A stretch of DNA of 63,530 bases, filler included. It is 7 parts of 7 records of this genome, joined end to end, with 100 filler letters (N's around TTAATTAATTAA, not from the genome) between each part and the next. Parts side by side here need not be neighbours in the genome. Positions count along the whole stretch, not along the records: positions 39,495 to 58,177 come from SRR31156797_9279; 6 more parts are not named here. The stretch is one strand, 5' to 3'. The translations under genes and the position numbers were made by a program. Below are positions 10,042 through 61,775 of the stretch, piece after piece; within the stretch, counting starts at the first letter, position 1, and each line of letters opens with the position of its first letter. The notes under the pieces were generated by a model. It was not told the origin of the DNA, did no database searches, and saw nothing but the letters and a program-made list of their open reading frames with translations.

Positions 10042-10052
10042 AATGGAGAAAA

Positions 10053-11034: not shown

Positions 11035-11134
11035 NNNNNNNNNNNNNNNNNNNNNNNNNNNNNNNNNNNNNNNNNNNNTTAATTAATTAANNNNNNNNNN
11101 NNNNNNNNNNNNNNNNNNNNNNNNNNNNNNNNNN
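11035..11134. other. Artificial contig spacer
   Basis: N44-TTAATTAATTAA-N44. Confidence 0.98.
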
Positions 11135-30964: not shown

Positions 30965-31183
30965 AAATAAGAGTTTGAAGGTATTTAAATGTTAAATATC
31001 TCACATGTCCCTCCTAATTGTGCTATTATACATTCCAGATAAAGCCTATCATTTTTTAAATAACAACCGGTTGCACAAATAACCAACTAGAATAATTCGT
31101 AATTGATTTTAAAAATTACAGAAGTACATAAATATAATAATCACGTTTACACTAGTAATTCTGGTGTATTGGGTGGAAAGGAA

Positions 31184-34243: not shown

Positions 34244-34449
34244 ATTTCATTTTAGGTTCATTTATAAGTGATAATATGATACTGGCAAGAGGCACTAAAT
34301 ATAGATATGTAGAAGGCATGGCTCGCAAATATGTTAAAATGAATTAGTCTTTTGATTATTTCTTGATGAAAATGAGTTGGAAAACTATAAATTTTGATAA
34401 ATTCGAAAAGTCATAATCTAATGAAAATAATATGTGTTTGGGAATTAGC

Positions 34450-35016
34450 ATGAATTTCGAGGAAAGATTGGAGCAACTAAAAGATGAACTCCAAAAGGAT
34501 GATTTTTTGAAAGCAAGAGGTCTTGGAAATGAAATTCCTTTCTGGATATTCGATTATCCGGCAGATAAAGAGCTTCTTATGAGAAATACTGTTGACAAAA
34601 TAGTTACAGGTCTTGCTAAAGAGTCCATTAATGTACTTAATATTGATCTGTATGATATGTGCCTTGAAATATTGCAGCAGATACCCGAAGAGAAGATAAT
34701 TGCACTTGAGAAAAAGAGAGGTTCGGACGCACTGCTCAAAAAGCTGAAACTCATGCTGAAACCGGATGTTCTTAGAAATGCAATTATGACAAAAGTTGAA
34801 GATGCAGGAGATTCAGATATTGTTTTTTTAACTGGTGCCGGAAAAGCATGGCCAATGATAAGATCACATTCAATCCTGAACAACCTGCAGCCAGTATTTG
34901 ATAAAACCCCACTTGTTTTATTTTATCCAGGGGAATATAGTGAATTTGACCTGAGCTTATTTGGAAAACTGAGTGCTAAAAATTATTACAGAGCTTTCAG
35001 ACTTATCAACATTTAA
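34450..35016 (+). CDS. brxB: BREX protein BrxB (DUF1788)
   Basis: GLGNEIPFWIFDYP, GKAWPMIRSHSILNNLQ, FYPGEY, NYYRAF. Confidence 0.92.
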   Translation: MNFEERLEQLKDELQKDDFLKARGLGNEIPFWIFDYPADKELLMRNTVDKIVTGLAKESINVLNIDLYDMCLEILQQIPEEKIIALEKKRGSDALLKKLKLMLKPDVLRNAIMTKVEDAGDSDIVFLTGAGKAWPMIRSHSILNNLQPVFDKTPLVLFYPGEYSEFDLSLFGKLSAKNYYRAFRLINI

Positions 35017-35038
35017 TGACTTTTAATGAGTGTTTATT

Positions 35039-38000
35039 ATGATCAATGGAATCAAAATTGAAGACCTTTTCCTGAAAGATGTTAAGAGAAACATCAATGG
35101 AGTTATTAAGGTCGATCAGGATGATGAAGCAAGCATCTACACAGAGCTTGATGAATATGTTGTGACCAAAGAATCAAGGGAGCATTTTGATAGATTCTTC
35201 ACAAGATATCACAATGCTACACAGGAACCCACTGATAAGATCGGGATTTGGGTCTCAGGTTTTTTTGGTTCCGGTAAATCTCATTTTATAAAGATACTGT
35301 CATATTTGATGGAAAACAAGACCATTAATGGGAAGACATCTCTTGATTTCTTCAAGGAGAAAATTGAAGATCCTCTTATTTTTGATAACATTGAGAGATC
35401 AGTCAATTATGGTACAAAGGATGTAATCCTGTTCAATATCGATTCCAAAGCAAGCACTGTTGATAGGGACAACGAGCTCATTGTCAATGTGATGATGCGG
35501 GCCTTTAATGAAAAGAGAGGCTACTACAGGGATGTGTTCTGGATTGCTGAGATGGAGGAAGATCTGGACAATAAAGGTCTTTTCAGCTCATTTAAGGAAG
35601 AGTTCCTGAAAATAAACGGTGACCCCTGGGAGGACAGGAGAAGTAGTTATGCTTTTGAGTATGATGATGTCGTTGATGCTCTGGTAAATTGTGGATACCA
35701 GAGCAGGGATGCATGTGAAAAACTCTTCGAAAATGATGGGGTAGCATATCATTTTGATGTTGAGAAATTTGCTGAGAAACTAAAAAAATACTGCGATTCT
35801 AAAGGAAATGACCACCAGATCATTTTCCTTATAGATGAGATAGGACAATACATAGGTGAGAATAGTGAGCTAATGCTGAATCTTCAGAGCATTGTTGAAG
35901 AGCTTGGTACCAAACTTCATGGTAAAGCATGGGTGATCGTTACATCACAGGCTGATATTGACTTGATCACTCAGGAGAAAGTGAAAGCTTATGACTTCTC
36001 TAAGATCCAGGGGCGTTTTGATACCCGTTTGAGCCTTTCCAGTGCCAATGTGGATGAGGTTATCAAAAGAAGGATCCTTGCAAAGAAGGAAGATTATAAG
36101 GATACGCTTTCAGTTTATTTTGATGAAAAACAGACTATACTTAAAAACCTGTTATCTTTCTCAAACGGTACAGCACAGATGAAGTTGTATTCGGGATCAG
36201 ATGACTTCACTAATGTCTATCCGTTTGTTCCATACCAGTTCATTATCTTGCAGAAAGTGTTCGATCAGATTAGGCAGACCGGTTATACCGGAAAACATCT
36301 TGCAAAAGGTGAGAGGTCTTTGCTCAATGCTTTCAAGGAAGCAACTGAGAAGTACTGCGATGATGGAATTGGTATTCTTGTGCCTTTCTCTTCTTTTTAT
36401 AGTACAGTGGAAAACTTCCTTGATCCTATCATTAAACGTACAATCAAACAGGCGGAAGAGAATGATGTTTTGAACAGTGAAGACTGTGACCTATTAAAAA
36501 TACTGTTCATGATACGCCATGTGGCCGATGTCCAGCCAAACCTTGAGAACCTAGTGGCATTGTCTGTTTCAAGTGTTGATGAGGATAAGCTTGAGCTTAA
36601 GAAGAGAGTTGCTGAATCTCTGAAGAAGCTGGAAGGACAGACACTTATCAATAAATCAGGGGATAGCTACTCTTTCCTGACCAATGAGGAACAGGAGATC
36701 AACAGGGAGATCAAGAATCTTGATGTCGATAGACATTTGATCCTTGATGATATTTTCAAGGTTGTTTTTGAGTCAAATGATATCTGTCCTAAGAACAGTA
36801 AATATGTTTTTAACAAAGTACTTGATGACAAGATCAAGCCCATAAACAACGCAGACATTACGGTCAAGTTCCTGACACCACTTTCTGATGAGCTCACAAG
36901 AGGTAGCGGACAAAGGACCCTTCATGGAGACAATCTGAGCAATATAGACTCTACTGATACGCTGCTTTTCATATTCCCCGAAAAGAGCGAGTTCGTGGAT
37001 ATGGTGAGAAAGTACCTGAAGATTAACAAGTATCTCACTCAGAACAGCTCAAGGTCTAACAATGAGATCCTTCACAGAATACTGCTTGATAAGACACAGG
37101 AAATGGAGAGGCTTAAGGAGTCTGCTGTTAAGTCTATTTATGAAGGAGCTTCTGAGTCGAGGATATTCATCCATGGTAAGGAAGTAACAAGTATCGGTAA
37201 CAAGAACCCTAAGGACAGGGTTAAGGAAGGTCTTGTCATCCTTTTTGAGAATGTGTTCAGTAAGGAAGGATATGTTACGAGAGATTTTGATTCCGATACA
37301 GACGTGTTGCGTGTTCTTAGGTCGGATGATCTTGAGAAATTTGGTTTCGGTAAATCTGAGGTCAATAAAAGAGCCTTGAAAGAGATCCTTGATTATGTGG
37401 AAATTCGTACCGAAAAGAACGATAATGTCATTTTGAAGGAGATTAAGAACAGGTTCTCAGGGAAACCTTATGGCTGGAAGGATATGACAATATCTGGTCT
37501 TGTGGCGACCCTTTTTGCAGCTGAGGATATTAAACTGAGATACCAGAAAACAACACTTCAGGGGAATCCTGAGGAAATTGCCAGATATCTTACGAGGAAG
37601 GATGATGCTGAACGTGTAATCCTTGAGATCCGTAAGCCTGCAGGAATGGAGACAATCAATAATGTCAAGTCGGTACTTCGGGATGTGTTCGAGAAGACGG
37701 CTATTCCTGATAAGGAGAAGGACCTTTTCGATCGTTGTCATGAGATACTTACCGATGAGATGAGAAGTATTGACAAGATCGCAGGAAAGTATGCTGAAGA
37801 GAAACGCTATCCTGGAGTGAAAGATATTGGAGTCTACGATCAATTCCTGAAAGAGGTATTGAGCATTACTGATCCTTCTCAGTTCCTTGGAAAGATATCA
37901 GATGACAAAGACACCCTTACAGAGCTGAAAGAAAAGGTAAGCCCTGTGATGAGATTCTTTGGCAGCCCGCAGGTAGATATTTTTAGAAAGGTTGCGAGGA

Positions 38001-38590
38001 AGATAGATTCCTTCAAGAGAAACGAACAGTTCCTTGATCCTGATGGAAGATTCGCCATTAAAGAGATTGAAAGAATACTGGACCTTGATGAACCATATTC
38101 CGAGATCAAGAACCTAAAGGGACATGAGCTCACCATTGAGAGTTCACTTAGAACAAGCCTTGACAATCTAAAAGAGAAGTTCTTTGATAAGCTTAATACT
38201 GCTAAAACTGAGGTAGAGGATGAACTTAACCAGCATTCGACACTATCCAATGAATTCAAACTCTCTGTGATGATATCTTTTGAGAAGGTTGAGGTTGCTG
38301 TTACATCTTCAGATGAATGTTCGTTTGTGAAGCTTCAGCTTGATAGGATCGATGGCGACCAAAGAATCGCTTTTGATGAGATCAATAAACAGTTGCATGT
38401 CATTAAAGAACCTCCTGCCGAAGGTGGCGATGAACCGGTTGCACCCCCTGTTCGTGGAACAACGATGCTGGAACCTACAGTATTCCGTTCTGTGAGTGTT
38501 ATAAGAACAGAAGAAGACCTTAATACATACATCGAGTCGTTGCGTGCAAAACTTAGTGCTATCCTTAAGGACAGCAATATCAAGGTGTGA
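35039..38590 (+). CDS. brxC: BREX P-loop ATPase BrxC
   Basis: RNINGVIKV, ELDEYVVT, GFFGSGKSH, LIDEIGQY, KIQGRF, YPFVPYQF, GERS, PYGW. Confidence 0.95.
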   Translation: MINGIKIEDLFLKDVKRNINGVIKVDQDDEASIYTELDEYVVTKESREHFDRFFTRYHNATQEPTDKIGIWVSGFFGSGKSHFIKILSYLMENKTINGKTSLDFFKEKIEDPLIFDNIERSVNYGTKDVILFNIDSKASTVDRDNELIVNVMMRAFNEKRGYYRDVFWIAEMEEDLDNKGLFSSFKEEFLKINGDPWEDRRSSYAFEYDDVVDALVNCGYQSRDACEKLFENDGVAYHFDVEKFAEKLKKYCDSKGNDHQIIFLIDEIGQYIGENSELMLNLQSIVEELGTKLHGKAWVIVTSQADIDLITQEKVKAYDFSKIQGRFDTRLSLSSANVDEVIKRRILAKKEDYKDTLSVYFDEKQTILKNLLSFSNGTAQMKLYSGSDDFTNVYPFVPYQFIILQKVFDQIRQTGYTGKHLAKGERSLLNAFKEATEKYCDDGIGILVPFSSFYSTVENFLDPIIKRTIKQAEENDVLNSEDCDLLKILFMIRHVADVQPNLENLVALSVSSVDEDKLELKKRVAESLKKLEGQTLINKSGDSYSFLTNEEQEINREIKNLDVDRHLILDDIFKVVFESNDICPKNSKYVFNKVLDDKIKPINNADITVKFLTPLSDELTRGSGQRTLHGDNLSNIDSTDTLLFIFPEKSEFVDMVRKYLKINKYLTQNSSRSNNEILHRILLDKTQEMERLKESAVKSIYEGASESRIFIHGKEVTSIGNKNPKDRVKEGLVILFENVFSKEGYVTRDFDSDTDVLRVLRSDDLEKFGFGKSEVNKRALKEILDYVEIRTEKNDNVILKEIKNRFSGKPYGWKDMTISGLVATLFAAEDIKLRYQKTTLQGNPEEIARYLTRKDDAERVILEIRKPAGMETINNVKSVLRDVFEKTAIPDKEKDLFDRCHEILTDEMRSIDKIAGKYAEEKRYPGVKDIGVYDQFLKEVLSITDPSQFLGKISDDKDTLTELKEKVSPVMRFFGSPQVDIFRKVARKIDSFKRNEQFLDPDGRFAIKEIERILDLDEPYSEIKNLKGHELTIESSLRTSLDNLKEKFFDKLNTAKTEVEDELNQHSTLSNEFKLSVMISFEKVEVAVTSSDECSFVKLQLDRIDGDQRIAFDEINKQLHVIKEPPAEGGDEPVAPPVRGTTMLEPTVFRSVSVIRTEEDLNTYIESLRAKLSAILKDSNIKV

Positions 38591-38595
38591 TCTTT

Positions 38596-39394
38596 GTGGA
38601 TAAAAAAAGCATAGAGGTATTCTCAAACACTGTAAGGGACAAACTCCTTCAGGAGATCAAGAACCAGGCATTTAATCTCGGGATTACCCCAGAGGCCATA
38701 CTCCCTGTGGACACAACCGCTGAAGATGCTATTGTGATCGGTGGCAAGGTCTTCAAAAAGGAGATCATGCAGCAACGCAAACAACTCGTCAGAACGGTAG
38801 AGGAAAAAGGCTATGATCAGGTAATGGATGAGGTCACATATACCTGGTTCAACCGTTTTGTAGCCCTTAAGTTCATGGAGTCAAACTCATACCTCCCTGT
38901 AAAGGTATTCTCCCCCGAAGACCCGACCGACCACGAGCCGGAAATCTTCAGCAAAGCAACATCCATAGATTTTCTCGATCTTGACAGGATAAAGATCCTC
39001 GACCTTAAAACAGACAACAAGGACGATGAACTTTACAGATACCTGATCCTTTCCACCTGCAACTACCTCAACAAGATCATGCCCTTCCTGTTCGAGCATA
39101 TCGAGGACTACACCGAACTCCTCCTCCCTACAAACCTTCTACACACTGATTCCATTATCCACGACCTGAACAGCATTATTCCGGAGGAAGACTGGCGTGA
39201 AGTCGAGGTCATCGGTTGGATCTATCAGGATTATGTTAACCCAAGAAAGGACAATGTGTTCAAAGACCTAAAAAAGAACATAAAGATCAGCAAAGAGAAC
39301 ATCCCTGCAGCTACGCAGCTTTTTACACCGAAGTGGATTGTCAAGTACATGGTGGAGAATTCCCTAGGTCGTCTCTGGCTTGAATCAAATCCAA
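38596..39394 (+). CDS. pglX: BREX adenine methyltransferase PglX (3' partial)
   Basis: YTWFNRFVALKFME, EVIGWIYQ, IPAATQLFTPKWIVKYMVENSLGRLW; GTG start after AGGTG. Confidence 0.92.
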
Positions 39395-39494
39395 NNNNNN
39401 NNNNNNNNNNNNNNNNNNNNNNNNNNNNNNNNNNNNNNTTAATTAATTAANNNNNNNNNNNNNNNNNNNNNNNNNNNNNNNNNNNNNNNNNNNN
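39395..39494. other. Artificial contig spacer
   Basis: N44-TTAATTAATTAA-N44. Confidence 0.98.
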
Positions 39495-44750: not shown

Positions 44751-44844
44751 AAGAGAAAATCCGTATGCGCCTTAATATTTGGCCGTTTCGAATATGGCAC
44801 CTGGTTTATGGCCGGTATTATTTAAATCCACAAGGAGGTATTCT

Positions 44845-46266
44845 ATGACGACAGATGGTAGAGAAGGACAGATTGTATCCGTACTGGAAGGGATTGTCGG
44901 AAAGAATCATGTCACAACCAGTATCTTTGAGAAGCTTAAAGAGTCTCTGGATCCCTTTCCATATCATGCAAACCGGGAAAACCTTCCGCTTGCCGTTGTT
45001 CTGCCGGAGACCGCGGAGCATATTTCAGAGATCCTTCAGTATGCAAACCGGGAAAAGATCCCGGTATTTGTTCGCGGATCCGGTACCCAGCTTGCCGGAT
45101 CATCCCGGCCCCACACACCGGGGATCATGATCAATACCGCCAGAATGACAAGCTTTGAGATCATGGAGGAGTATGGCTTTTTTGAGTCGGGCCCCGGAGT
45201 TCGGGTTGACGATGCCGGAAATATGCTGGGTGAAAAGGGGTGGTTTTTACCCATCTGGCCGGGTAGTCGCGTTATCGCCAGTATGGGGGGCGTTATTTCC
45301 AACAACACCAGTGGTCACATTATCGATGCCGCAATGGGGCGGATCTCCGATTATGTGTATGGTCTGGAGGTGGTGTTACCAACCGGTGAAATCATCGAGA
45401 CCGGCACGAGAGGGCTTCGAAAAGTGGGGGGGACGGATTTGACCAAGATGTTTGTTGGTGGAGACGGCATGATGGGCATTGTGACCAAAATTCGTATGCG
45501 CCTCCTTCCCGTCGCCCGGCAGTCCTACGGCATCGCCATTTTTAAAGATCTCAAACCGATTGCCAGAGGTGTGAAGCGGATGTATTTGGAAAAGGCGCCG
45601 CCGCCCCTCTTCATGGAATTCATGGATCATAATGTCTCGACCATTGCCTATCAAATCAAGGAAATGGCGCCGCCCCCCGGACCGGTGGTATTTTTTGTGG
45701 CAGTGGGGCAGGACGAGGAAGAGGCGGGCAAAAAAATGAAGCGGGTTATGAAGATTTTCCAAGGGGAAAATCCTGTGGAGGCCCGGGCTATCTCGGATAT
45801 TGAGGAGTGGAAAAAACTGTGGGTCGCGCGTGAAGTAATTGCACCGTACCTCATGAACAAACTCCAGGGAAAGCTCATTGCCGTCGAACTGGTGGCCAAC
45901 CTCAAGGATTTGGAGGAGGCCATGGAGGCAGGGGCACGATTTAACGAGGGCATTCCCTACCTCGAAGACCTCACCAACTACTATTTCGGCCACATCGGGG
46001 CTTTAACCATGCACCCTACTTTTGTACTGCCTCCGGATTTTAACGATGAGATCATGCGCGAGATCAACAAACGCCAGTTTGAAAAAGAAGCTGATTTTAA
46101 TCTCAAGTACAATACCTGCGGCGGTGAATGGGGACAGTTTTCCAAAAGGACCCCGTTTTTCATCCGGCGCTATGGGGATGCGGCTTATGAGCTGGTGAAG
46201 AGAATGAAGGCAGCCTTTGATCCGAACAATATTTTGAATCCGGGAATCCTGGAAGGGTACCGATAA
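44845..46266 (+). CDS. GlcD/LctD-like FAD-binding 2-hydroxyacid dehydrogenase
   Basis: RGSGT, GLEVVLPTGE, DLTKMFVG.DG..GIVT, FDPNNILNPG; AAGGAGG RBS. Confidence 0.88.
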   Translation: MTTDGREGQIVSVLEGIVGKNHVTTSIFEKLKESLDPFPYHANRENLPLAVVLPETAEHISEILQYANREKIPVFVRGSGTQLAGSSRPHTPGIMINTARMTSFEIMEEYGFFESGPGVRVDDAGNMLGEKGWFLPIWPGSRVIASMGGVISNNTSGHIIDAAMGRISDYVYGLEVVLPTGEIIETGTRGLRKVGGTDLTKMFVGGDGMMGIVTKIRMRLLPVARQSYGIAIFKDLKPIARGVKRMYLEKAPPPLFMEFMDHNVSTIAYQIKEMAPPPGPVVFFVAVGQDEEEAGKKMKRVMKIFQGENPVEARAISDIEEWKKLWVAREVIAPYLMNKLQGKLIAVELVANLKDLEEAMEAGARFNEGIPYLEDLTNYYFGHIGALTMHPTFVLPPDFNDEIMREINKRQFEKEADFNLKYNTCGGEWGQFSKRTPFFIRRYGDAAYELVKRMKAAFDPNNILNPGILEGYR

Positions 46267-46299
46267 TATCTTCAAAATGTGTTTAAAGGAGGAAAAGTC

Positions 46300-47766
46300 A
46301 TGAGTGGCCAAGATATTACGAGGATTTTCAGTGAGTTTGTAAATAAAACTCGATTCTCCGATCTCCCCAAGGAGGTTGTGGAACAGACCAAGGATTACAT
46401 ACTGGATTGTATCGGATGCACCATGGGGAGCTATGGGGTACCCGAGGGAATCCAAATTGAGAAAATGGGCAAGGAATTCGGGAGCGGAACCGAGGGCACC
46501 ATCGTGGTCAACGGCCATAAAACGTCCGCTACCGCCGCCGCGTACGTCAACTGTAAGCTTTGCAATTTTATCGATGCGGATGAAACCCTTTACAATTACT
46601 ACCATATCGGGGGGGTTCCCTTTTACGCGGCTTTGCATGCCGCCGAGAAGGTCAATGCCACCGGCGAGGACCTTATTACGGCCGTGGCCCTGGGATATGA
46701 ATTCTCCTATCGTTTCTGCCAAAACTATGCCTTGCTGACAATCAACGATAAGGGCGGTACGGACATTGCGAAGGCCTCGGGCTTCGGCTTTAACTCCATT
46801 GCTGCGGCCGTGGCAGCGGCCAAGGTGCTCAAATTTGACGTGGAAGGGATCCGGCAAGCCATGGGCGCTGCCGGTTATTACACGGCCGTTCCCCTTATCT
46901 CCAAATGGCTTTACACGAAGCCGTTGGGAAACCTGAAGTACCAGGATATGGGCTGGTTCGCTTTTACGGGTCTGCTTTCGGCGCTTTTCGCAAGGGATGG
47001 TTATACGGGAGATCCGTGCATTGTGGACGACTACGGAGAATATAGCTTCTGGAAAGCGTTCGGCATGCTGGAATTTGATTTTGACGCCATGGTGAAAGAC
47101 ATGGGCGACAAATGGGGCATCATGGAAATGGGTATCAAGCCGTATCCCTGCTGTCGCTGGTTTCACACGCCAATCCATATGTTGAAGACCATGATGAAAA
47201 AGGAAGGGTTGGGGCCTGATGATATTGATGCCGTCACCATGAAGGTCCATCCTGCCGTGGCCAAGAGCGAGCTGTTTGTAAGTGTTAGTAAATGGCACGA
47301 CTGGGAACGGAAAGACGCGGTTCATGCCCAGTACAGCGCCGGGTACTGTTTGGCTTGCGCGGCATATGATATCCCGGTGGGTCCCCAGTGGCAACTGCCG
47401 GAAACTTTGATAAATCCTCAACTGCTGGCGTTCAGCAAAAAGGTAACCTCCGTGAAGGACGAAAAGTGCGAGCAGAAAATGATTGCCTATCTGAATTCCG
47501 ATCAGCCAAAGGGCAAATTAATGACCCAAGTGCATTACACACTGGAGGTGACATCGGGGAAGGGCACGTTTACGGACACGGCCGAATATATCTATGGCGA
47601 CACCTATGACCCGGATCATTGCCTTAGCCGTGATGAGCTGAAACAAAAATTCAGAGGGAATAGCTCTGCGGTACTGGACGCAAAGACCATGAACAGGATC
47701 ATTGATGCCGTTTACGGCCTTGATGCTTATGCCTCTGTTGCTGAATTTACAGCTTTGTTCCAATAA
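46300..47766 (+). CDS. MmgE/PrpD-family protein
   Basis: ILDCIG, AAYVN, GEDLITAVALGYE, KPYPCCRW.H, ELKQKF. Confidence 0.9.
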   Translation: MSGQDITRIFSEFVNKTRFSDLPKEVVEQTKDYILDCIGCTMGSYGVPEGIQIEKMGKEFGSGTEGTIVVNGHKTSATAAAYVNCKLCNFIDADETLYNYYHIGGVPFYAALHAAEKVNATGEDLITAVALGYEFSYRFCQNYALLTINDKGGTDIAKASGFGFNSIAAAVAAAKVLKFDVEGIRQAMGAAGYYTAVPLISKWLYTKPLGNLKYQDMGWFAFTGLLSALFARDGYTGDPCIVDDYGEYSFWKAFGMLEFDFDAMVKDMGDKWGIMEMGIKPYPCCRWFHTPIHMLKTMMKKEGLGPDDIDAVTMKVHPAVAKSELFVSVSKWHDWERKDAVHAQYSAGYCLACAAYDIPVGPQWQLPETLINPQLLAFSKKVTSVKDEKCEQKMIAYLNSDQPKGKLMTQVHYTLEVTSGKGTFTDTAEYIYGDTYDPDHCLSRDELKQKFRGNSSAVLDAKTMNRIIDAVYGLDAYASVAEFTALFQ

Positions 47767-47864
47767 AAGGCTAATTCACCGCCAGGTTTATCCGCCGGGA
47801 CGGAACTTTTCGCAGGTTTCTCCGGCCGGATGATGCCCCACGCGAATAATTCTTGGAGGTTATC

Positions 47865-49055
47865 ATGACTGAACTCGATGATGTGACCAAACAATTGATG
47901 GATGATATTGAGGAGAGAACCCGGAAGTGCTGGAACTGTAATTTCTGCATGTCCGTCTGTCCTGTTTTTAAAAATACCTACGGATTTTACAGCCGCGGCG
48001 GTTCCGGTCTAACCCAGTCTCTTTATTATGCCATACGGTGGAGTCTGTTTGACGGGCCGGAAAAGGAAGAACTCATGCACAATGTCTTCCGCTGCACCAC
48101 TTGTAACGCGTGTGTCAACAGATGCAGTGACTTGAGCGCCGGGATTCCCCTCATGGAAATCATGGAACGGGGTCGAAAACTGCTTGTGGAAAAGTCCATC
48201 GGACCCATGCCCGACCAGCGCAAGGTCCTGGAGTCCATCTATATGTACGGCAATCCCTATAACCAGGCCCGGGAGAAACGCCTGGAATGGTTGAAGGATC
48301 TCAAGGTTAAAATGCTTCCCGCTGAAAAGGCCGAGGTTATTCTCTTTGTGGGTTGCTCCACCAGTTACGAGCCGGCACTTCAGGATGTGGGCCGTTCCTT
48401 GGTGAAGCTGCTTCAGTTTTTGAAGATGGATTTCGGCATACTGGAAGAAGAAAAATGCAGTGCGGAAACGGTCATCAGACTGGGCGACGAGGTGCTCTTT
48501 GAGGAGTTGTCCGGGGAGAATGCGGCGGTATTCAAAGAAACCGGCGCCAAGACGATTGTGACGATCAGTCCCCATGATTTCAATACATTCACACAGGATT
48601 ATGAATCCTTGAAGGATCATTTTGAAATCAAACATTACACGGAATTTCTGGCTGAAAAACTGGACGGAAAAGAGATTGAATTCAAAAGCGGAATAGACGC
48701 CGACGTAACCTACCAGGACCCGTGCTATCTTTCAAAACATCACGGAATAATGGAAGCGCCCAGAAATCTCCTCAAAGCCGTGCCGAAGCTAAATCTGGTG
48801 GATATGAAATTAAGCGGAAGGGACAACCTTTGCTGTGGTGGTGGAGGCGGCCGTATGTTTACGGAGATCCAAGAAGAAGAGAGACTTTCGGACATGCGTG
48901 TGGGACAGGCGCTGGAGGTGGATGCGGGAATCATCGCCACGGCCTGCCCGTGGTGTCATATGATGCTGGACAATGCGGTTCGGGATCTCAAGATGGATGA
49001 GAAAATAAAGGTTATGGATGTTTCCGAGCTCTTAGTCGAGGCATTGGGCCTTTGA
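47865..49055 (+). CDS. GlcF/HdrD-like Fe-S protein (CCG domain)
   Basis: Two CxxCxxCxxxC motifs, YQDPCYL, CCGGGGG, TACPWC. Confidence 0.9.
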   Translation: MTELDDVTKQLMDDIEERTRKCWNCNFCMSVCPVFKNTYGFYSRGGSGLTQSLYYAIRWSLFDGPEKEELMHNVFRCTTCNACVNRCSDLSAGIPLMEIMERGRKLLVEKSIGPMPDQRKVLESIYMYGNPYNQAREKRLEWLKDLKVKMLPAEKAEVILFVGCSTSYEPALQDVGRSLVKLLQFLKMDFGILEEEKCSAETVIRLGDEVLFEELSGENAAVFKETGAKTIVTISPHDFNTFTQDYESLKDHFEIKHYTEFLAEKLDGKEIEFKSGIDADVTYQDPCYLSKHHGIMEAPRNLLKAVPKLNLVDMKLSGRDNLCCGGGGGRMFTEIQEEERLSDMRVGQALEVDAGIIATACPWCHMMLDNAVRDLKMDEKIKVMDVSELLVEALGL

Positions 49056-49104
49056 GTTTGTAAACTGCCATAACATCGTGATTTTTAAAATGAGGAGGAG
49101 AGGC

Positions 49105-49437
49105 GTGAAACACGTAAATTATCTTGATGTAAAAGAGGAGAAAATCAGTGAGGGGGGCGCACATGGTGTCTCGCTTCGCACTGTCATCGGTGAGGCGGAC
49201 GGGGCCCCCAATTTTTTTATGCGGGTGATTCGCTTGGAAGCCGGTGCCGCGACCCCCAGCCACAACCATCCATGGGAACATGAGGTGTTTATTACCAGCG
49301 GAACGGGAACCGTCGAGGTTGAAGGTAAAACGACCCGTCTTAAGCAGGGGGATGTGGTCTATATTCCTCCCGATGCGGAACACTGCTTTCAGACAACCGA
49401 GCCAATGGAGATGATCTGAATTATTCCCAAGGTATAA
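49105..49437 (+). CDS. TM1459-like cupin, probable selenoprotein (UGA 49417-49419 read as Sec)
   Basis: GAPNFFMR, HNHPWEHE, EH; readthrough gives MEMI-U-IIPKV-TAA, matching family FLC(L/I)IPK. Confidence 0.8.
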
Positions 49438-49457
49438 CTGGCATCTGGATGATGCAA
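49420..49457 (+). promoter_or_regulatory. Candidate bacterial SECIS element
   Basis: Hairpin GCATC-TGGAT-GATGC (49441-49455); loop G lies 28 nt after the UGA. Confidence 0.55.
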
Positions 49458-49574
49458 GAGATTTTGGATGGAAATCTATGACGTGTTCAGTGATGCCATA
49501 TTATAGGCGTCGAAGAAAGGGGGGGTGAAGATAAAACATGGCATTAGAAACCGGGAATAAAGGAGGAAATTACA

Positions 49575-50606
49575 GTGGGCAAGATGAATTCTTACGAGAG
49601 GGTTATGGCCTGCTTTGCGGGGGAAAAGCCGGATAGGGTGCCGGTTGTTCCGATCGTAAGGGAGTGGTGCTGCAAGCAGGCCGGCATACGGTTTTCCGAC
49701 ACAATGGATAATGTGGAGAAGCATGTCTATTCTCAATATTACTGTGCCAAGACCTTCGGATATGACGCGGTCTATGACTTAATCGGCGTTCATGCCGAGT
49801 CGGAAGCCATGGGTTGCAAAGTGAAGTACGGAGATGGCTACATGCCGATGATCGAGGACACGGCCATCAAGAATTACGAGGATGATCTTCCAAAAATGAG
49901 GCTGTTAAATCCTTACAAGGATGGTCGTCTGCCGTTAATCCTGGAAGGTATTTCGAGGTTGAAGGAATTGTGTGCGGGAGAGATCCCCGTAATAGGATAT
50001 GTTCAGTGCCCATTTCGTCACGCGGCTATGATGAGGGGAGCTGAACATCTCATGAAAGATATTTACAAAGATGAAGAAAATGCCAGGAAACTTCTGGAAA
50101 TCGCCACGCGAAGTCAAATGGTATGGGGTGTGGCGGTGGCACAGGCAGGCGCGGATATTGTGCTTCTTTCAGATCCTACATCATCAGGGGATGCCGTTTC
50201 CGTTAAGACTTATGAGGAATGGGGCCTCCCCTATACCCGGAAGGTGCTCAAAGCCATAAAAGACACGGGTGTCAAAACACTCTTACATATGTGCGGAAAC
50301 ACGTCGGACCGTCTCGAAATTCTTGCATGCACCGGAGTTGACGGTTTGAGTTTAGACGCAAAAGTTGATATGGGGTTTGCCAGGGAGACCATGGGCGCTG
50401 AATATCTCCTCATGGGCAATGTGGAACCGACCGATCCGTTGAGCCTGGGCAAACCTGAAACCGTTTATGAACATTCGAAAAAGCTCATTGAACAGACCGG
50501 CAAAGAGGGACATTTTTTCCTGAGCGGGGGGTGCCTCATTTCGGATATTGCACCTTCAGTCAATATGGAGACTATGATCAAGGCAGGGCATGAAGCTGTC
50601 TATTGA
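49575..50606 (+). CDS. MtaA/CmuA (UroD superfamily) protein
   Basis: ERV..PDRVPV, SEAMGC, SDP, LHMCG, GNV.P, GGC (Zn ligands HxC...C). Confidence 0.88.
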   Translation: MGKMNSYERVMACFAGEKPDRVPVVPIVREWCCKQAGIRFSDTMDNVEKHVYSQYYCAKTFGYDAVYDLIGVHAESEAMGCKVKYGDGYMPMIEDTAIKNYEDDLPKMRLLNPYKDGRLPLILEGISRLKELCAGEIPVIGYVQCPFRHAAMMRGAEHLMKDIYKDEENARKLLEIATRSQMVWGVAVAQAGADIVLLSDPTSSGDAVSVKTYEEWGLPYTRKVLKAIKDTGVKTLLHMCGNTSDRLEILACTGVDGLSLDAKVDMGFARETMGAEYLLMGNVEPTDPLSLGKPETVYEHSKKLIEQTGKEGHFFLSGGCLISDIAPSVNMETMIKAGHEAVY

Positions 50607-50672
50607 TTTTGCCATGCTTATCGGTTTTCGTTTAGTAGAACAATGTAATCTTTCAAATTGAAGGGGGATCGT

Positions 50673-51707
50673 ATGGAAATGAAAAGAACATGTAAGAAAC
50701 TCGTGATGATTTCGGGAATACTGTTGTTAGCCTTAGGGCTTGTCGCGGGAGTGCATGCCGAGGACAAAGAGAAGGTTTATGAAATGAAGACCGGTTATGT
50801 GGGTCCTCCGAAAATGATGGGTGGGTATCGTGGCACTTTTTATCTTGATGAGGAAATATTCGCCCGAACCGGTGGACACGTGAAATTGATTCCCCTTATC
50901 GGGAAAAACCGCGAAAACCTTAATAAAGTAGTATCCGGTGTTCATCAAGCTGACTATGACGGAACGTCCATCTATGCAAATATTGCCGAGCCGGTCTGGA
51001 CCATCCTCGATATGCCTTTCATCTGGACCAATTATGATCGGATCAACAAGTTCAGGAACAGCAAATTATTTGATCCCATTCGGAAGGCCCTGGACAAAAA
51101 AGGGTTGGAGGTCCTGGCGATAACCTGTTACGGCATCTGGGATTTCCAGACGCTGAATACGCCGGCCGATACCCTGGATGAGCTGAAAAAACTCAAATAC
51201 CGGATCAGCGGCACCAATACACATATCCAGACAATGAAGCTTCTCGGAATAAAATCCCAAATGATCCCGTTCCCGGAGGTGTACGCGTTGTTGAAACAGA
51301 ATGTCCTGGATGGGACCATCATTTCCGCGGATGGTGTAAACTTAGGTAAATGGAACGAATTGCTCAAATACTATATTAATTTCCCCGTGTTCAATGGATG
51401 GCTGATCTTTTCCGCCAATAAGAAATGGATGGACAGTTTGCCCAAGGAATATGCGGATATTATCAGGGATGCAGCAAAAAAAATGGAAGAGCGTGAAGTT
51501 TTACAACAGCGATATCGAGACGAATACGTTGAAGCGCAATTTAAGGCCAAGGGCATGACCTTCATTGAGATGGCCCCGGGTGAAATCGCAAAGGCAAAAA
51601 AACTCGTCATGCCTATTTATGAGGAATTTGCTTCTCGTAAGGGTGTGGGTAAGGACTATTTCAATAGTGTAATGGAATTGATCGGGGAGGAATTGAGGAT
51701 TAAGTAG
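50673..51707 (+). CDS. dctP: TRAP DctP solute-binding protein
   Basis: Signal peptide, LDMPF, LKYR (conserved Arg), PFPEVYALL..NVLDG. Confidence 0.88.
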   Translation: MEMKRTCKKLVMISGILLLALGLVAGVHAEDKEKVYEMKTGYVGPPKMMGGYRGTFYLDEEIFARTGGHVKLIPLIGKNRENLNKVVSGVHQADYDGTSIYANIAEPVWTILDMPFIWTNYDRINKFRNSKLFDPIRKALDKKGLEVLAITCYGIWDFQTLNTPADTLDELKKLKYRISGTNTHIQTMKLLGIKSQMIPFPEVYALLKQNVLDGTIISADGVNLGKWNELLKYYINFPVFNGWLIFSANKKWMDSLPKEYADIIRDAAKKMEEREVLQQRYRDEYVEAQFKAKGMTFIEMAPGEIAKAKKLVMPIYEEFASRKGVGKDYFNSVMELIGEELRIK

Positions 51708-51759
51708 GTTTTTGTTCGGCCATGAAAACTTTCTCATGGTTGTCATAAAGAAGAACCTG

Positions 51760-51796
51760 TCTCCTTGGCACCTTGAAAGATGAGGTGCCAAGGAGA
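51760..51796 (+). terminator. 14-bp stem-loop after dctP
   Basis: TCTCCTTGGCACCT...AGGTGCCAAGGAGA; no T-tract, so likely an mRNA-stabilising or processing hairpin. Confidence 0.6.
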
Positions 51797-51875
51797 TAAA
51801 CCTAACTTAAAAAATAATCAGCAGACCTCTGTCCCTTTCAAACAGAGCCTGGTCAGATGCTGGATGGAGTTTTAA

Positions 51876-52394
51876 ATGGGTGCCTCCCGAAAAAACATAC
51901 TGAAACGCTTGAGCGACGGGCTTGCTTATATTGAAGATTTTTCGCTCGGGATTATTCTTATTGTTATTGTAGCGCTTATTTTTGGCAACGTATTTTCAAG
52001 ATTTATTCTTGGAAAACCGTATGCCTGGCCTGACGAGATCGCAAAGTTTCTCCATGTCATCGGCATCTATATCGGCGTCGCCGTAGCAAGCAGGAAAAAT
52101 ACCCATCTGAAGATTGATTTGGTGCCTCAATACTTTCCCGGGACGAAAAAGGCATATGGCGTTATTGCTCCCATTGGAGGCGTGATTTTTAGCACGATCT
52201 TTGTGTGCCTTTCTTATCAATTCTTTGCCTTTGAACGTATGATGTTGGATAGAAGCTGGGTCACTTCTGTGCCCATCTGGGTCATTGCGCTGGTCATTTT
52301 GATATCGGGTATCATGATTTTCATAAGAGAGGTCGAGAGGCTTATCAATTCCGTTTTTAGTTTAAGGGCTAAACCGGAAAAGTCTGAAATCTGA
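51876..52394 (+). CDS. dctQ: TRAP small permease
   Basis: 4 TMs, VFSRF..WPDE, HLKID. Confidence 0.9.
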   Translation: MGASRKNILKRLSDGLAYIEDFSLGIILIVIVALIFGNVFSRFILGKPYAWPDEIAKFLHVIGIYIGVAVASRKNTHLKIDLVPQYFPGTKKAYGVIAPIGGVIFSTIFVCLSYQFFAFERMMLDRSWVTSVPIWVIALVILISGIMIFIREVERLINSVFSLRAKPEKSEI

Positions 52395-52404
52395 GGAGGA
52401 TCAA

Positions 52405-53700
52405 ATGGAGGGACTAGTTGTTTTTGGGGGGATGCTTATTCTGTTTTTTCTGGGTATCCCAATCGGGTTCTCTTTGTTCATGATAACGTTTGTTGCCTTC
52501 TCCTTTTTTACCGATATTCCGCTCATCGCCATGGCTCAGGCCATCCTGGCGAAATTGGATTCTTATCCCCTCTTGTGTGTTGTGTTTTTCATTCTCACCG
52601 GAAACCTCATGGTGAGAGGAAAGACCTCCGGTAAGTTGGTTGAATTGACCAACTCCATGCTTGGATACATTCCGGGCGGGCTAGGCATAGTAGGGGTATC
52701 GGCTTCCGCCATGTTTGGGGCCATATCGGGCTCCGCCACAGCCACCCTGGTTGCCATTGGCGGCATTATGATGCCTTCAATGATCAAGGAGGGATACAAT
52801 GATCAGGACAGCGTGGGACTCATGACGAATGCGGGAATGCTGGGGATCATTATGCCCCCAAGTGTTCCGCTGATCATATATGCCCTCCTGGCGGGGACTT
52901 CCGTGGGAAAAGTGTTTGCCGCGGGGTTTCTGCCCTGCATGTTGATCGTTGTCATTTTCTCTCTCTACGTATGGTTAAGCGCTCGAAAGAACAAGTACGC
53001 CTGTCTCGAATTCGTGGGAATCGGGCCGTACCTGAAAAGGGTTCTAGGGTCGTTTTACAGGGCCGTGCCCGCCTTGTCGATTCCCCTGGTTATTTTTATC
53101 GGGATTTTCGGCGGGATCTTTTCAGCCACTGAGGCGGGCGCCATTTCCGTCCTGATGGCTTTTGGAATTGAATTCTTTCTCTACAGGGGCGTTTCACTGA
53201 AGCTGGCTTGGGATACCATTCTCGAGTCCTTTATGGTTACGGCTACTTTTCTCATTATAGTGGCCGCGGCATCCACGTTTGGCGATTATCTGACGCTTCA
53301 GCAGATTCCGGTTCGACTGACCGAAGCAGCCATGAAGTACATCCATTCCCCGATTGTTTTCCTTCTGTTTATCAATTTTTCTTTTCTGATCTGCGGAATG
53401 TTCTTGGATGTTCTATCTGCGATCATTCTTTTGACGCCCATCGTGATCCCTATCGTGAATGGGTTTGGGATTGATCCAATCCATTTCGGCATCCTGGTGG
53501 TTGTGAATCTGGGAATCGGATACGTGACGCCGCCGGTGGGGATCAACCTCTTTGTAAGCTCGAGCATTATGAAAAAGACGTTGCCGGAAGTAATTTCCGC
53601 GAGTTTACCCTATTTTATTCTGAGTTTGTTTGCACTGATCATCATAACCTATTGGCCGGATCTGAGTCTTTGGATTCCACGCTTGATATACGGGTCATAG
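52405..53700 (+). CDS. dctM: TRAP large permease
   Basis: FGAISGS, IMPPS, ATEAG, GIDPIHFG, TPPVG. Confidence 0.95.
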   Translation: MEGLVVFGGMLILFFLGIPIGFSLFMITFVAFSFFTDIPLIAMAQAILAKLDSYPLLCVVFFILTGNLMVRGKTSGKLVELTNSMLGYIPGGLGIVGVSASAMFGAISGSATATLVAIGGIMMPSMIKEGYNDQDSVGLMTNAGMLGIIMPPSVPLIIYALLAGTSVGKVFAAGFLPCMLIVVIFSLYVWLSARKNKYACLEFVGIGPYLKRVLGSFYRAVPALSIPLVIFIGIFGGIFSATEAGAISVLMAFGIEFFLYRGVSLKLAWDTILESFMVTATFLIIVAAASTFGDYLTLQQIPVRLTEAAMKYIHSPIVFLLFINFSFLICGMFLDVLSAIILLTPIVIPIVNGFGIDPIHFGILVVVNLGIGYVTPPVGINLFVSSSIMKKTLPEVISASLPYFILSLFALIIITYWPDLSLWIPRLIYGS

Positions 53701-53771: not shown

Positions 53772-54263
53772 ATGCCAGAAAGAAATCTTTTAGATGGCAA
53801 GAAAATTCTCATCGTGGATGATGAGACTGACATATTGGAGACGCTGGAAGATATCCTGACCATGTGCGAAGTGGCCACCGCTTCCAGTTTTAATGAGGCC
53901 GAAGCGCTTTTGAAAACCCGATACTTTGACATTGCCGTCTTGGATATTATGGGGGTTAATGGCTACGAACTGCTCAAAATTGCAAAAAAAAAGGGGGTGA
54001 TGTCGATTATTCTGACGGCCCATGCACTCACGCCCGATAACCTCATGAAGTCTTTCAACCAAGGGGCGGACTCCTATGTGCCTAAAGATAAGATCGCCGA
54101 TATAACCACCTTCTTGGAGGATATCCTGGAAGCCAGGCAACAGGGAAAACATTTATGGGGACGCTGGTTTGAACGGTTTGCGTCATTTTTTGAAAAGAAA
54201 TTTGGTCCTGAGTGGCAAGCAGAGAACAAGGACTTCTTGAAAAATCTCCAGTATCGCATCTGA
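53772..54263 (+). CDS. Single-domain response regulator
   Basis: VDDE, LDIMG, LTAH, VPK. Confidence 0.88.
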   Translation: MPERNLLDGKKILIVDDETDILETLEDILTMCEVATASSFNEAEALLKTRYFDIAVLDIMGVNGYELLKIAKKKGVMSIILTAHALTPDNLMKSFNQGADSYVPKDKIADITTFLEDILEARQQGKHLWGRWFERFASFFEKKFGPEWQAENKDFLKNLQYRI

Positions 54264-54293: not shown

Positions 54294-54668
54294 ATGGCTT
54301 CTTATACCAACAATCTTGATCTCAGTGAGATTTTCCCCCTCATATTAGATACCGTACCCGTTGGGATTACGTTGATCGATACGGAAGGACGAATGTTATA
54401 CTTTAATCGGTATGCCGCCGAAATCCTTGATCGTAAACCCGAATATTTAGGCCGAAATATTCGACGGTGTCATAAAGAATCGGAGAGTATTGTTAAAATC
54501 GACCGTATATTAGAAGAATTTAAAAGAGGTGAATGCTCTGAGTTTTACTATGAGGCAAGCCGTGCGGGGACGGATTTTGCCGTTACGGTTCGGCCGTTGA
54601 AAAAACAAGGTCGGCTGCTCGGATGCATTCACAGCGTTGTGATAAAGAGTAAGAAACCGGGAGGTTAA
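54294..54668 (+). CDS. Stand-alone PAS domain protein
   Basis: ILDTVPVGITLID.EG..LYFN...LGRNIRRCH. Confidence 0.8.
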   Translation: MASYTNNLDLSEIFPLILDTVPVGITLIDTEGRMLYFNRYAAEILDRKPEYLGRNIRRCHKESESIVKIDRILEEFKRGECSEFYYEASRAGTDFAVTVRPLKKQGRLLGCIHSVVIKSKKPGG

Positions 54669-58631: not shown

Positions 58632-61600
58632 ATGCTATTTAAGGGATATCATATAATTACTTTTCTTGCTTTTTTTTTAGTTCTTGCCAATTCATGCAAG
58701 AAAGCAGATCAGCAGAAACCGGAGTCCAACAGTACCATAAGTTATTCTAGTTTTATTTCACCACAAAATGATTTTCGATCTCACCCTTTTTATTCGATAA
58801 ATGATTCGCTAACCGAAGAAGAAATCAGCAGACAAATCAAAGACTTTAAACAAGCTGGTTTTGGTGGTTTCTATTTACATAGCCGATCTGGATTGATTAC
58901 AGAATTCCTGGGAGATGACTGGTGGAAAATAATGCAGGCCTCGGTTAATGCAGCTAATGAAGTTGATTTGCGCTGCATGTTTTACGACGAAGATAAATGG
59001 CCAAGTGGTTTTGCCGGTGGAATTGTCCCCCGCATAAGCGAAGATTATCGTTCGAAATGTTTGGCACGTTTAGCAAAAACCACCCAACTACCTGCCGGAG
59101 CAGAAATAATTGGCAGTGATAGTTTATATAACTATGTAATGTTTACGATGCAAATGGGATGGGACATTTTTAACGGAACCTGTTACGTTGATCTTTTCAA
59201 TCCCCAAGCGGTTCAGGCGTTTATTAATGTATCCTATAAACCCTATGTTGAAAAATATAAATCTTCAATTTCTACTTATACCCCTGCAATATTTTCTGAT
59301 GAGCCGCATGTTCACGCCAGGTATTTTGAAAAAAAAACACCGAACCTCGGAACACTTTCCTATTCACCTTGGCTAGAAAAGAAATTCCAGGAGCTGTACG
59401 GTTATTCTCTTCGCGATAACCTTAGCCTTCTATTTGAGGAAAAGGAAAATTGGCGAGAAGTAAGGATGCACTACTATCGTGCAAAGGCACTTACTTTTGA
59501 AGAGAGTTATACCAAACAATTAGCAGAATTTTGTGGCACTAACGGATTCGAATATACCGGACATTATTTAGCAGAAGATGTTATGCACAAAATTCGCGAC
59601 CGGGCAGCCAACACCATGCTTCATTACCGAAGCATGCAACAACCGGGCATAGACCTGCTTGGCCTTTCTATCGACAAAAAATTGATTACCGGCCGCAACC
59701 TGAGCAGCGTTGCCAATCAATATGGTAAGCAAAAGAGACTAAGCGAACTTTTTGGTATTAGCGGACAGAATATGAACTTTGAAGACCGCAAATGGCTGGC
59801 AGGCTGGCATAGTATCCTTGGCATTAACCACTTTTGTCCGCACCTTACACTATACAGCATGGCAGGGCACCGAAAACGCGATTATCCGCCCACTTTTTCG
59901 TATCAACAGCCCTACTGGAATTACAACAAAAAAATTGAAGATTATTTGGGACGCATTGCCTATGCATCTTCCGTTGGAAAATATGCACCACAAATTCTGG
60001 TAATTAGCCCATTGGAAAGTGCCTATATTAAGGGCCGTGAGGATGGTGAATTTACCAGTGGTATGTTAAGCGTACTTGGAGATTTACAAGCTGCGCATTA
60101 TGATTACGATATTGGAGACGAACAAATTTTGGCTGACACAGCATACCTTAATGGTAGTAATTTGGTTGTTGGCGAGATGAGCTATCAACATATTATCCTT
60201 CCAGACATGATTTCGATTCGCGAAAGCTCCATTAATCTAATACTGGAGTTGCAAAAAAAAGGAGGATTGATTTTTAATACCGGACGTTTTCCCGTGTACG
60301 TTGACGGAAAAGAAAACAAACAAAAGCTGGATGAGCTAAAACAACACGTTATTCTGGCAGCAGATAAAGATCTGGAAACAACACTTGTTAAATATATTAA
60401 TCCTCACGTAAAATTAACAGGTAAAGAAGCCAAAAAGATTTGGATCCAAAGCCGTATTGTTAGAGATGGAAAACTAATCCAGTTTTACAACAGCTCCAGA
60501 ACCTCAACCATACGTTTTAATGTAACTGCAGAATTCAACCAGGGCAATACCGTTTTATGGGAACCATCAGAAATAAAATGTTATTCGCTTTCTGCAAACA
60601 AAAAAGGAGGTTATACGCTTGAACTTAAACCCTCTTCAAATATTTGGATAACTTCGGGTAGCCTAAGTAAAGATGCAGTTGTTTCAGGAGAATACCAACT
60701 TCCCCAATCAACGAAAGAAGAGTTGGTATTAAAAAATAATTGGAAAGGCAATCGACTAAATCCAAATGCCCTTACACTGGATTTTGCCAGATATTCAATC
60801 AATGGGGGAAATACGTTTAGTAAAGAAGAACCAGTAATCGGAATTTTCAGCCGTTTAGCTGATCAAAATTATAATGGAGATTTAATTTTGGATTATTCAA
60901 TTAAGGTTGATGCGATTCCGAAAGATTGTCAATTGGTAATAGAACAACCAAACATGTATTCTTCCATTCAGGTTAATAAAAAACAAGTACATTTCGATAA
61001 AAACAAACATTACCTTGACCGTACTTTTAAGAGCAAAACTATTTCTGGTTTGTTAAAAGAAGGAACCAACACCATTGAGTTAAAAGTGGATTTTAAAGCT
61101 CCTCAACCGTTAAGCTCCGATCCCCAAAAAAGATACGGAACTGAAATTGAAAGTATTTACCTAACCGGAGACTTTGCAGTTACCGGAACGGATGAAAAAG
61201 AAACTTATACCACACAGCGTAACCGAGCCGGTGATTTTCAACAGCGACCGGTTCATCAATTTTCAGATTTTGTAATTACTTCAGAAAAAGAAACCTTTAA
61301 TGGTAACCTGACAGTAGAGGGGTACCCGTTTTATGCCGGAAGTTTTGAGTTGATCCAAACTTTCGAGATGCAAAATATGAGTCCTGAGAAAGAATATTTC
61401 CTCGAACTATCCAATTGTGAAGCGATAACTTCAGTAATAGAAATAAATGGTCAGGTTGTTGATACTCTGGCCTGGGCACCTTTTAAAACAAAAATAACCG
61501 GGCATTTAATACAAGGTAAAAATGAGGTAAAAATAATCCTGGTAAATTCATTAAGAAACCTGCTTGGACCGCATCACCATAAGGGAGGCGAGCTAATAAA

Positions 61601-61775
61601 GGTTGGTCCCAAAAGTTTTACAGGCTCTGGTGGTTTCCCTGATGGTCGGGGAGAAAAAGATTGGTACGATCGTAGAAAAACAGGAGAGAAAACGGCAATT
61701 TGGACTGATACTTATAACCACATACCATTTGGGTTCATCGAAAATATTAGAATAACTTCTTCAAAAAATAAATAA
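58632..61775 (+). CDS. GH106-like (alpha-L-rhamnosidase-like) lipoprotein glycoside hydrolase
   Basis: Lipobox ANSC, GFGGFYLH, YDEDKWPSG.AGG, FSDEP, PGID, SE.FG, KRDYPP. Confidence 0.75.
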   Translation: MLFKGYHIITFLAFFLVLANSCKKADQQKPESNSTISYSSFISPQNDFRSHPFYSINDSLTEEEISRQIKDFKQAGFGGFYLHSRSGLITEFLGDDWWKIMQASVNAANEVDLRCMFYDEDKWPSGFAGGIVPRISEDYRSKCLARLAKTTQLPAGAEIIGSDSLYNYVMFTMQMGWDIFNGTCYVDLFNPQAVQAFINVSYKPYVEKYKSSISTYTPAIFSDEPHVHARYFEKKTPNLGTLSYSPWLEKKFQELYGYSLRDNLSLLFEEKENWREVRMHYYRAKALTFEESYTKQLAEFCGTNGFEYTGHYLAEDVMHKIRDRAANTMLHYRSMQQPGIDLLGLSIDKKLITGRNLSSVANQYGKQKRLSELFGISGQNMNFEDRKWLAGWHSILGINHFCPHLTLYSMAGHRKRDYPPTFSYQQPYWNYNKKIEDYLGRIAYASSVGKYAPQILVISPLESAYIKGREDGEFTSGMLSVLGDLQAAHYDYDIGDEQILADTAYLNGSNLVVGEMSYQHIILPDMISIRESSINLILELQKKGGLIFNTGRFPVYVDGKENKQKLDELKQHVILAADKDLETTLVKYINPHVKLTGKEAKKIWIQSRIVRDGKLIQFYNSSRTSTIRFNVTAEFNQGNTVLWEPSEIKCYSLSANKKGGYTLELKPSSNIWITSGSLSKDAVVSGEYQLPQSTKEELVLKNNWKGNRLNPNALTLDFARYSINGGNTFSKEEPVIGIFSRLADQNYNGDLILDYSIKVDAIPKDCQLVIEQPNMYSSIQVNKKQVHFDKNKHYLDRTFKSKTISGLLKEGTNTIELKVDFKAPQPLSSDPQKRYGTEIESIYLTGDFAVTGTDEKETYTTQRNRAGDFQQRPVHQFSDFVITSEKETFNGNLTVEGYPFYAGSFELIQTFEMQNMSPEKEYFLELSNCEAITSVIEINGQVVDTLAWAPFKTKITGHLIQGKNEVKIILVNSLRNLLGPHHHKGGELIKVGPKSFTGSGGFPDGRGEKDWYDRRKTGEKTAIWTDTYNHIPFGFIENIRITSSKNK

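Follow-up and report, generated by a model that had tools for sequence, protein, structure and literature searches.

A TM1459-type cupin with a probable selenocysteine codon near its C-terminus and a SECIS-like hairpin past the stop codon

The gene described here encodes a small cupin and lies on the + strand of a window of 63,530 nucleotides (the whole stretch of DNA that was analysed, seven joined parts with filler between them included). It belongs to a cluster of genes on the same strand. The first part of the cluster encodes GntR, 2-oxoacid:ferredoxin oxidoreductase subunits, a GltD-like flavoprotein, a GlcD-like FAD oxidase and MmgE/PrpD, and it continues with a 4Fe-4S/CCG protein, the cupin, a URO-D protein, TRAP DctPQM, a response regulator, a PAS protein, EtfB and EtfA. 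The features at and around the cupin gene are collected in Table 1.

Table 1. Coordinates of the cupin gene, its proposed recoding signals and the neighbouring genes, counted along the window
Feature	Position	Strand	Basis
FAD-linked oxidase (GlcD-like)	44779-46266	+	Pfam
MmgE/PrpD	46279-47766	+	Pfam
4Fe-4S/CCG-domain protein	47853-49055	+	Pfam
Shine-Dalgarno-like GAGGAGGAG	49092-49100	+	Read in sequence, ahead of GTG start 49105
Cupin coding sequence, 110 codons and TAA, with UGA as putative Sec at codon 105	49105-49437	+	Pfam, TM1459 match, AlphaFold2, Foldseek
In-frame TGA, proposed Sec codon, residue 105	49417-49419	+	TGA/Cys column in homologues; faces TM1459 Cys106
I-I-P-K-V (ATT ATT CCC AAG GTA) and true stop TAA (49435-49437)	49420-49437	+	Codon conservation
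SECIS-like hairpin, wholly past the stop codon	49438-49458	+	Stems 49441-45/49451-55, loop UGGAU 49446-50
URO-D family protein, downstream of the cupin	49575-50606	+	Pfam
TRAP transporter DctP/Q/M	50658-53700	+	Pfam

An earlier note on this DNA had claimed that the reading frame of the cupin does not end at the TGA at 49417 and runs on to a TAA, and this is confirmed: when the TGA is translated as U, the product of 49105-49437 ends in EPMEMI-U-IIPKV. The start was placed at GTG 49105 and not at the upstream GTG 49078 because homologous proteins begin with MKH[IV]NYLD in the alignment. The protein of the window carries a Cupin_2 domain (PF07883) with an E-value of 2.5e-17 and 62.8 bits (cut-off 27.2) in Pfam. 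Gene callers and NCBI give 104 amino acid products, so the proposed C-terminus is missed by annotation pipelines just as the note had expected, and the name given by NCBI to a truncated homologue of 104 amino acids is simply 'cupin domain-containing protein'.

TGA is an ordinary stop elsewhere in the window, where it terminates 16 of the 53 ORFs kept by our script, so the TGA at 49417 is not explained by an alternative genetic code. Every TGA-ended ORF of the window was also inspected as a candidate for a second selenoprotein gene, and no convincing in-frame TGA was found. The only long in-frame continuation runs from the response-regulator ORF at 53772-54263 (TGA at 54261-54263) into the PAS ORF at 54294-54668. 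An AAGG is located about 10 nt ahead of the ATG of the PAS ORF at 54294, and because of this the two ORFs are read as what are probably two genes.

The closest solved structure is TM1459 of Thermotoga maritima (5wsd/1vj2), which HMMER matches over query residues 7-109 with an E-value of 1.6e-18. The alignment runs straight through the UGA, with MEMI[U]IIPK facing EFLCLIPK and the UGA opposite Cys106. The three TM1459 motifs given in the note (APNF.MR, H.HPWEHE and FLCLIPK) are found in the same alignment as APNFVMR, HSHPWEHE and EFLCLIPK. An AlphaFold2 model of the window protein with Cys in place of Sec has a mean pLDDT of 96.2; in it residues 101-108 belong to the last beta-strand, which a stop at residue 104 would be predicted to halve. 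Foldseek searches with this model give TM1459 chains as the top matches (TM 0.91, rmsd about 1.5 Å, 36% identity).

TM1459 is a common scaffold for artificial metalloenzymes, and to our knowledge no native reaction has been established for any TM1459-type cupin. In TM1459 the manganese is bound by H52, H54, H58 and H92, and Cys106 lines the active-site cavity with its SH group 3.14 Å from the ligand His58 and 2.91 Å from Arg39 (PMC5031596); the note's description of this Cys as lying near the 4-His metal site thus agrees with the published structure. The corresponding residues in the window protein align with the four His and Arg39 of TM1459, and in an alignment of 33 sequences H53, H55, H59 and R40 never vary and H93 is kept in at least 90%. 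The activities described for TM1459, alkene cleavage and those of artificial metalloenzymes, are non-native and independent of Cys106, and variants that end at residue 107 fold and are active in non-native alkene cleavage (PMC5031596). A shortened cupin product is for this reason not to be called non-functional outright. There is no mention of C106 or cysteine in PMC10074404.

Comparisons with homologous genes show that the position of the UGA is occupied by one of only two kinds of codon. Species-representative genomes contain at least 556 homologous stretches, and the codon was read in the best 80 of them: 24 have TGA in this column, 56 have TGY (Cys), and none encodes another residue there. 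The window comes in addition to these, making 25 TGA loci. A search of a protein collection gave 34 matches, 32 of which were aligned after two fragments (P0030 and P0033) had been left out. Twenty-three of the 32 proteins stop exactly ahead of the UGA column and the remaining nine have Cys there. One protein cluster at 90% identity contains both 110 amino acid Cys forms and 104 amino acid forms. The expectation that homologues would have Cys opposite the UGA has thus been borne out, with Cys or TGA in all 80 loci and Cys106 of TM1459 in the same column.

The sequence beyond the UGA is conserved as well. In all 24 TGA loci the TGA is followed in frame by [LMVIA]-I-P-[KRQNH], the same motif that follows Cys in the Cys forms; on the protein side [LVM]-I-P follows Cys in eight of the nine Cys-form proteins, the tail of the ninth (P0028) being divergent. 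A real stop is found four to six codons past the TGA in the 21 loci of Thermodesulfobacteriota type and in two of the three loci of Dehalococcoidia type, while the frame is longer in the third (L031). The note had also asked for conservation of IIPK after the UGA, and in the homologues [LMVIA]-I-P is kept at the codon level with third-position changes only. In a DNA alignment of 22 sequences, the window included, positions 1 and 2 of the Ile and Pro codons after the TGA are invariant and the third positions are variable. Read from the alignment, this pattern is the signature of translated sequence. In three of the loci (L014, L023 and L026) the terminal stop is also TGA, about 15-18 nt after the proposed Sec codon. 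These loci thus have two TGAs five to six codons apart and one hairpin, and only the first TGA is at the spacing seen in the family.

The hairpin past the UGA is present as the note had described it. Its core, GCATC/TGGAT/GATGC, occupies 49441-49455 with its first base as the 22nd base after the UGA, and two further pairs across a 1x1 mismatch extend it to the limits given in Table 1. The spacing from the UGA to the loop is 26 nt. The predicted free energy is -7.4 kcal/mol with the extension and -5.4 kcal/mol for the uninterrupted core of 5 bp, which is among the weakest in the family. Taken alone the window hairpin is unremarkable: 5 of 200 shuffled sequences fold equally well, and its context of 76 nt has a z-score of -0.93. 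The case for a SECIS element therefore rests on comparison with relatives.

In those relatives the hairpin is kept, with compensatory changes, after the TGA in 21 other genomes. The UGA-to-loop spacing is 24-28 nt in the 21 TGA loci of Thermodesulfobacteriota type and the window. When these 22 sequences are aligned on the loop, the loop GG is invariant and seven of the eight pairs have changed on both sides (47 cells). Paired cells make up 89.8% of the alignment compared with 68.8% in shuffled alignments, none of 500 of which reach the observed value, and with 21-60% when the 3' partners are slid. RNAalifold independently predicts the identical helix in the TGA sequences.

A published model of bacterial SECIS elements has a loop of 3-9 nt with a G among its first two bases, a stem of 4-16 bp and a distance of 16-37 nt from the UGA, and sets an energy threshold of -7.5 kcal/mol (PMC13188914). 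The window hairpin agrees with this geometry in its UGGAU loop, its stem of 5 bp (7 bp with the mismatch) and its spacing, and with the extension it falls short of the energy threshold by 0.1 kcal/mol, a threshold that 19 of the 25 TGA loci reach. The note had described bacterial SECIS elements as small and G-containing loops shortly after the UGA, a description that the hairpin fits both in this geometry and in its covariation among TGA relatives. In a uniform scan a hairpin with the model geometry is present in all 25 TGA loci, the window included, and when an energy of -6 kcal/mol or better is required it is found in 23 of the 25 TGA loci compared with 4 of the 56 Cys loci. One of these four Cys loci, with a TGC codon (L011:1883-1927), has the same UGGAU hairpin 27 nt downstream at -8.9 kcal/mol, and this looks like a fossil SECIS from a recent change of Sec to Cys.

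Directly 3' of the SECIS-like hairpin in the window there is a second hairpin at 49459-49477, with stems AGAUUUU/GAAAUCU and loop GGAUG. It again displays UGGAU, now 46 nt from the UGA and beyond the range of 16-37 nt, and it was not seen in the downstream sequences of the relatives.

The machinery for Sec insertion was searched for in ten genomes with a TGA form (tRNA-Sec and SelB) and in five of them for SelA. A tRNA-Sec scoring 70-77 bits is present in nine of the ten genomes, SelB above the curated cut-off in eight of ten and SelA above the cut-off in five of five. Two of the metagenome-assembled genomes of the first five relatives have no SelB above the cut-off and one of these also has no strong tRNA-Sec, while both have SelA. 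At the same thresholds E. coli and M. jannaschii are the only control genomes with matches. A search of the whole window for RNA genes gave neither a tRNA nor an Rfam family at the gathering score. That the window's organism inserts selenium is something we infer from these relatives.

The weakness of the SECIS-like hairpin in the window raises the question of whether the UGA is always read in the same way. Sec insertion in bacteria competes with release factor 2. The UGA might then be read as Sec only partly or in a selenium-dependent manner, and the form of 104 residues might serve a separate purpose, perhaps as a protein that is inactive or has a changed activity. The truncated TM1459 variants, which do fold, fit this idea. 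However, the invariance of Cys or Sec in 80 of 80 loci argues that a product without this residue has no native activity, and we regard such a double role as unlikely.

Rather less probable still is that the TGA is a real stop, the cupin a protein of 104 residues, and the hairpin a 3' element of another kind, such as a terminator or a structure that stabilises the mRNA. The annotated products of that length, the ordinary use of TGA as a stop in the window, the alkene-cleaving activity of TM1459 cut at residue 107 and the modest appearance of the window hairpin when taken alone all fit this explanation. It leaves unexplained, however, why an in-frame [LMVIA]-I-P with third-position changes follows the TGA in every one of the TGA loci, why the loop GG never varies and why the hairpin goes with TGA and seldom with Cys. 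The last beta-strand would moreover be split in the model. In the relatives the hairpin is not followed by a U run, which argues against a terminator.

That the window copy is a selenoprotein gene decaying after loss of Sec decoding, or that a TGY was turned into TGA by faulty sequencing or assembly, is barely credible. Most relatives have a stronger hairpin, but in the window the IIPKV tail, the stop and the hairpin are undamaged, the same TGA is found in 24 other assemblies, and a separate Logan assembly has the TGA in a contig of 41 kb (word depth 37) with 0 differences over 48900-49700, although this public run is possibly the source sample.

The reading preferred here is the one proposed in the note, namely that the UGA at 49417, placed exactly at the conserved Cys, encodes Sec. 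It is supported by the alternation of TGA and Cys, the codon conservation of the tail, the covarying hairpin linked to TGA and the Sec machinery in relatives, and from these sequence comparisons we put its probability at roughly 0.87.

A maximum-likelihood tree was constructed from 81 rows and 106 columns with the UGA column left out, and many of its forks are unresolved. The TGA forms fall into two well-separated groups, a Thermodesulfobacteriota clade and a Dehalococcoidia group. The former comprises 27 rows, 22 with TGA (the window included) and five with Cys, and has an SH-aLRT value of 99. At least six changes between TGA and Cys are required by the tree, and the starred branches force at least two of them. 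The three Dehalococcoidia TGA loci (L031, L073 and L074) have a different hairpin 21 nt after the UGA with the loop GUU, GUC or GUUG, and the stems differ among the three by compensatory changes. The Dehalococcoidia forms would thus appear to represent a second, independent origin with a SECIS type of its own.

The genes around the cupin vary among relatives. The order GlcD-like, MmgE/PrpD, CCG, cupin and TRAP is common to three of the 16 relatives examined (L001, L004 and L014), and at the place of the window's URO-D gene these three have a second cupin of 136 amino acids (L001:4994-5401, L004:6426-6833 and L014:6407-6814). Neighbours in other relatives include PPDK-like and GAPDH-like genes, transketolase and ARMT1, aldehyde:ferredoxin oxidoreductase, and a radical SAM protein. 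A single shared gene context that would name the substrate was considered and rejected, as only these three of the 16 have the operon of the window. The differing neighbourhoods indicate that the cupin family is not bound to one pathway.

Other parts of the window have contents of their own. A SusC-like TonB-dependent receptor with CarboxypepD_reg is followed by a SusD-like protein at 7009-11087, a pair that is unexpected beside a cupin grouping with Thermodesulfobacteriota. The region at 31103-39450 encodes a UvrD/PD-(D/E)XK helicase-nuclease, brxB and brxC (BREX) and an ORF with no Pfam match, and judged by these genes it is part of a phage-defence island. An ORF of 1047 amino acids at 58632-61772, directly upstream of a GH88 glycoside hydrolase, has no Pfam family at E <= 1e-5.

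The following mechanism can be proposed for the locus. The coding sequence would give a TM1459-type (Cupin_2) metalloprotein of 110 residues, in which the UGA would be decoded by SelB and tRNA-Sec under the direction of the UGGAU-loop hairpin located beyond the true stop. Sec105 would take the place of the family's invariant Cys in the last beta-strand, lining the substrate cavity next to a metal-binding His and the invariant Arg. The Cys or Sec may be catalytic, as a nucleophile or a redox-active residue activated by the Arg and the metal. A small carboxylate could be the substrate; the adjacent TRAP transporter would bring it into the cell, and the products of the nearby genes for MmgE/PrpD, GlcD-like/CCG and 2-oxoacid:ferredoxin oxidoreductase would process it.

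Sec nearly always substitutes for a Cys that is catalytic, redox-active or nucleophilic. The alternation of Sec and Cys therefore marks Cys106 of TM1459 as the functional residue of the native reaction, which gives a concrete handle on the natural function of TM1459. In its widest form, the proposal is that the Cys or Sec serves in the native reaction either as catalytic nucleophile or as a redox partner to the metal, and that the Sec forms are the first selenium-using metal-dependent cupin enzymes, acting in anaerobic carboxylate catabolism and having arisen at least twice, each time with a SECIS type of its own. This is a tentative proposal, and as a whole we consider it somewhat more doubtful than probable.

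The cupin is among the largest metalloenzyme folds, and if the UGA is indeed read as Sec this fold joins the list of selenoprotein families. A systematic annotation error would also be corrected, in that calls of 104 amino acids miss the last half-strand and the key residue. The hairpins of the two groups would provide two natural and very small SECIS elements located wholly past the stop codon, which is useful for the design of recombinant selenoproteins.

The mechanism of Sec insertion is itself well known, and what may be new is the protein family. Table 1 of a catalogue from 2026, which covers 119 families and subfamilies of prokaryotic selenoproteins (PMC13188914), has no cupin and no PF07883 entry, and TM1459-type Sec cupins would be a selenoprotein family absent from that table. 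NCBIfam release 20 has no selenoprotein model matching the window cupin. Its best match there is another cupin, (R)-mandelonitrile lyase (NF049940), with an E-value of 1e-10 over residues 31-104; the window protein is not a member of this family, scoring 41.5 bits where 140 are required. Likewise there is no cupin, TM1459 or quercetin entry in the four supplement files of deep-Sep, and no selenium-containing cupin among the titles and abstract starts in a literature search that lay outside subscription journals. The claim of novelty does not extend to the protein list of BSepDB, which could include such a cupin.

Compared with TM1459, the window protein is alike in fold, length, the 4-His site, the Arg of APNF.MR and the C-terminal strand with C-[LIV]-I-P-K. 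It differs in having a UGA and a SECIS-like hairpin where TM1459 has Cys106, and it is 5-8 residues shorter at the C-terminus.

Among selenoproteins, the nearest parallels in gene layout are SaoC (NF040734), KCU-star (NF033934) and UXX-star, in which the UGA either coincides with the end of the frame or precedes the true stop by a few codons, as it does in the window. Next comes untranslated RNA that folds into a short, perfect stem whose loop contains G, and these proteins too appear shortened in databases (PMC13188914; 10.1101/2022.07.06.499078). In SaoC the order is UGA-UAG and then a stem of 7 bp closed by a GGU loop, with a similar layout in the 'star' families (10.1101/2022.07.06.499078). 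By analogy, a SECIS element wholly past the stop codon, as predicted here, is not without precedent, SaoC and the 'star' families providing it. The folds of these proteins are unrelated to the cupin, and they have CU, GxGU or similar motifs whereas the cupin would have a single Sec within a beta-strand of a barrel that binds metal.

In active-site chemistry the comparison is with FdhA (Mo/W-Se) and the [NiFeSe] hydrogenases, in which Sec replaces Cys at the metal site of an anaerobe's metalloenzyme (PMC13188914), as it would in the window cupin. In those enzymes the selenium is bound to the metal, whereas the thiol of TM1459 is in the second sphere, next to a His ligand and not on the metal itself.
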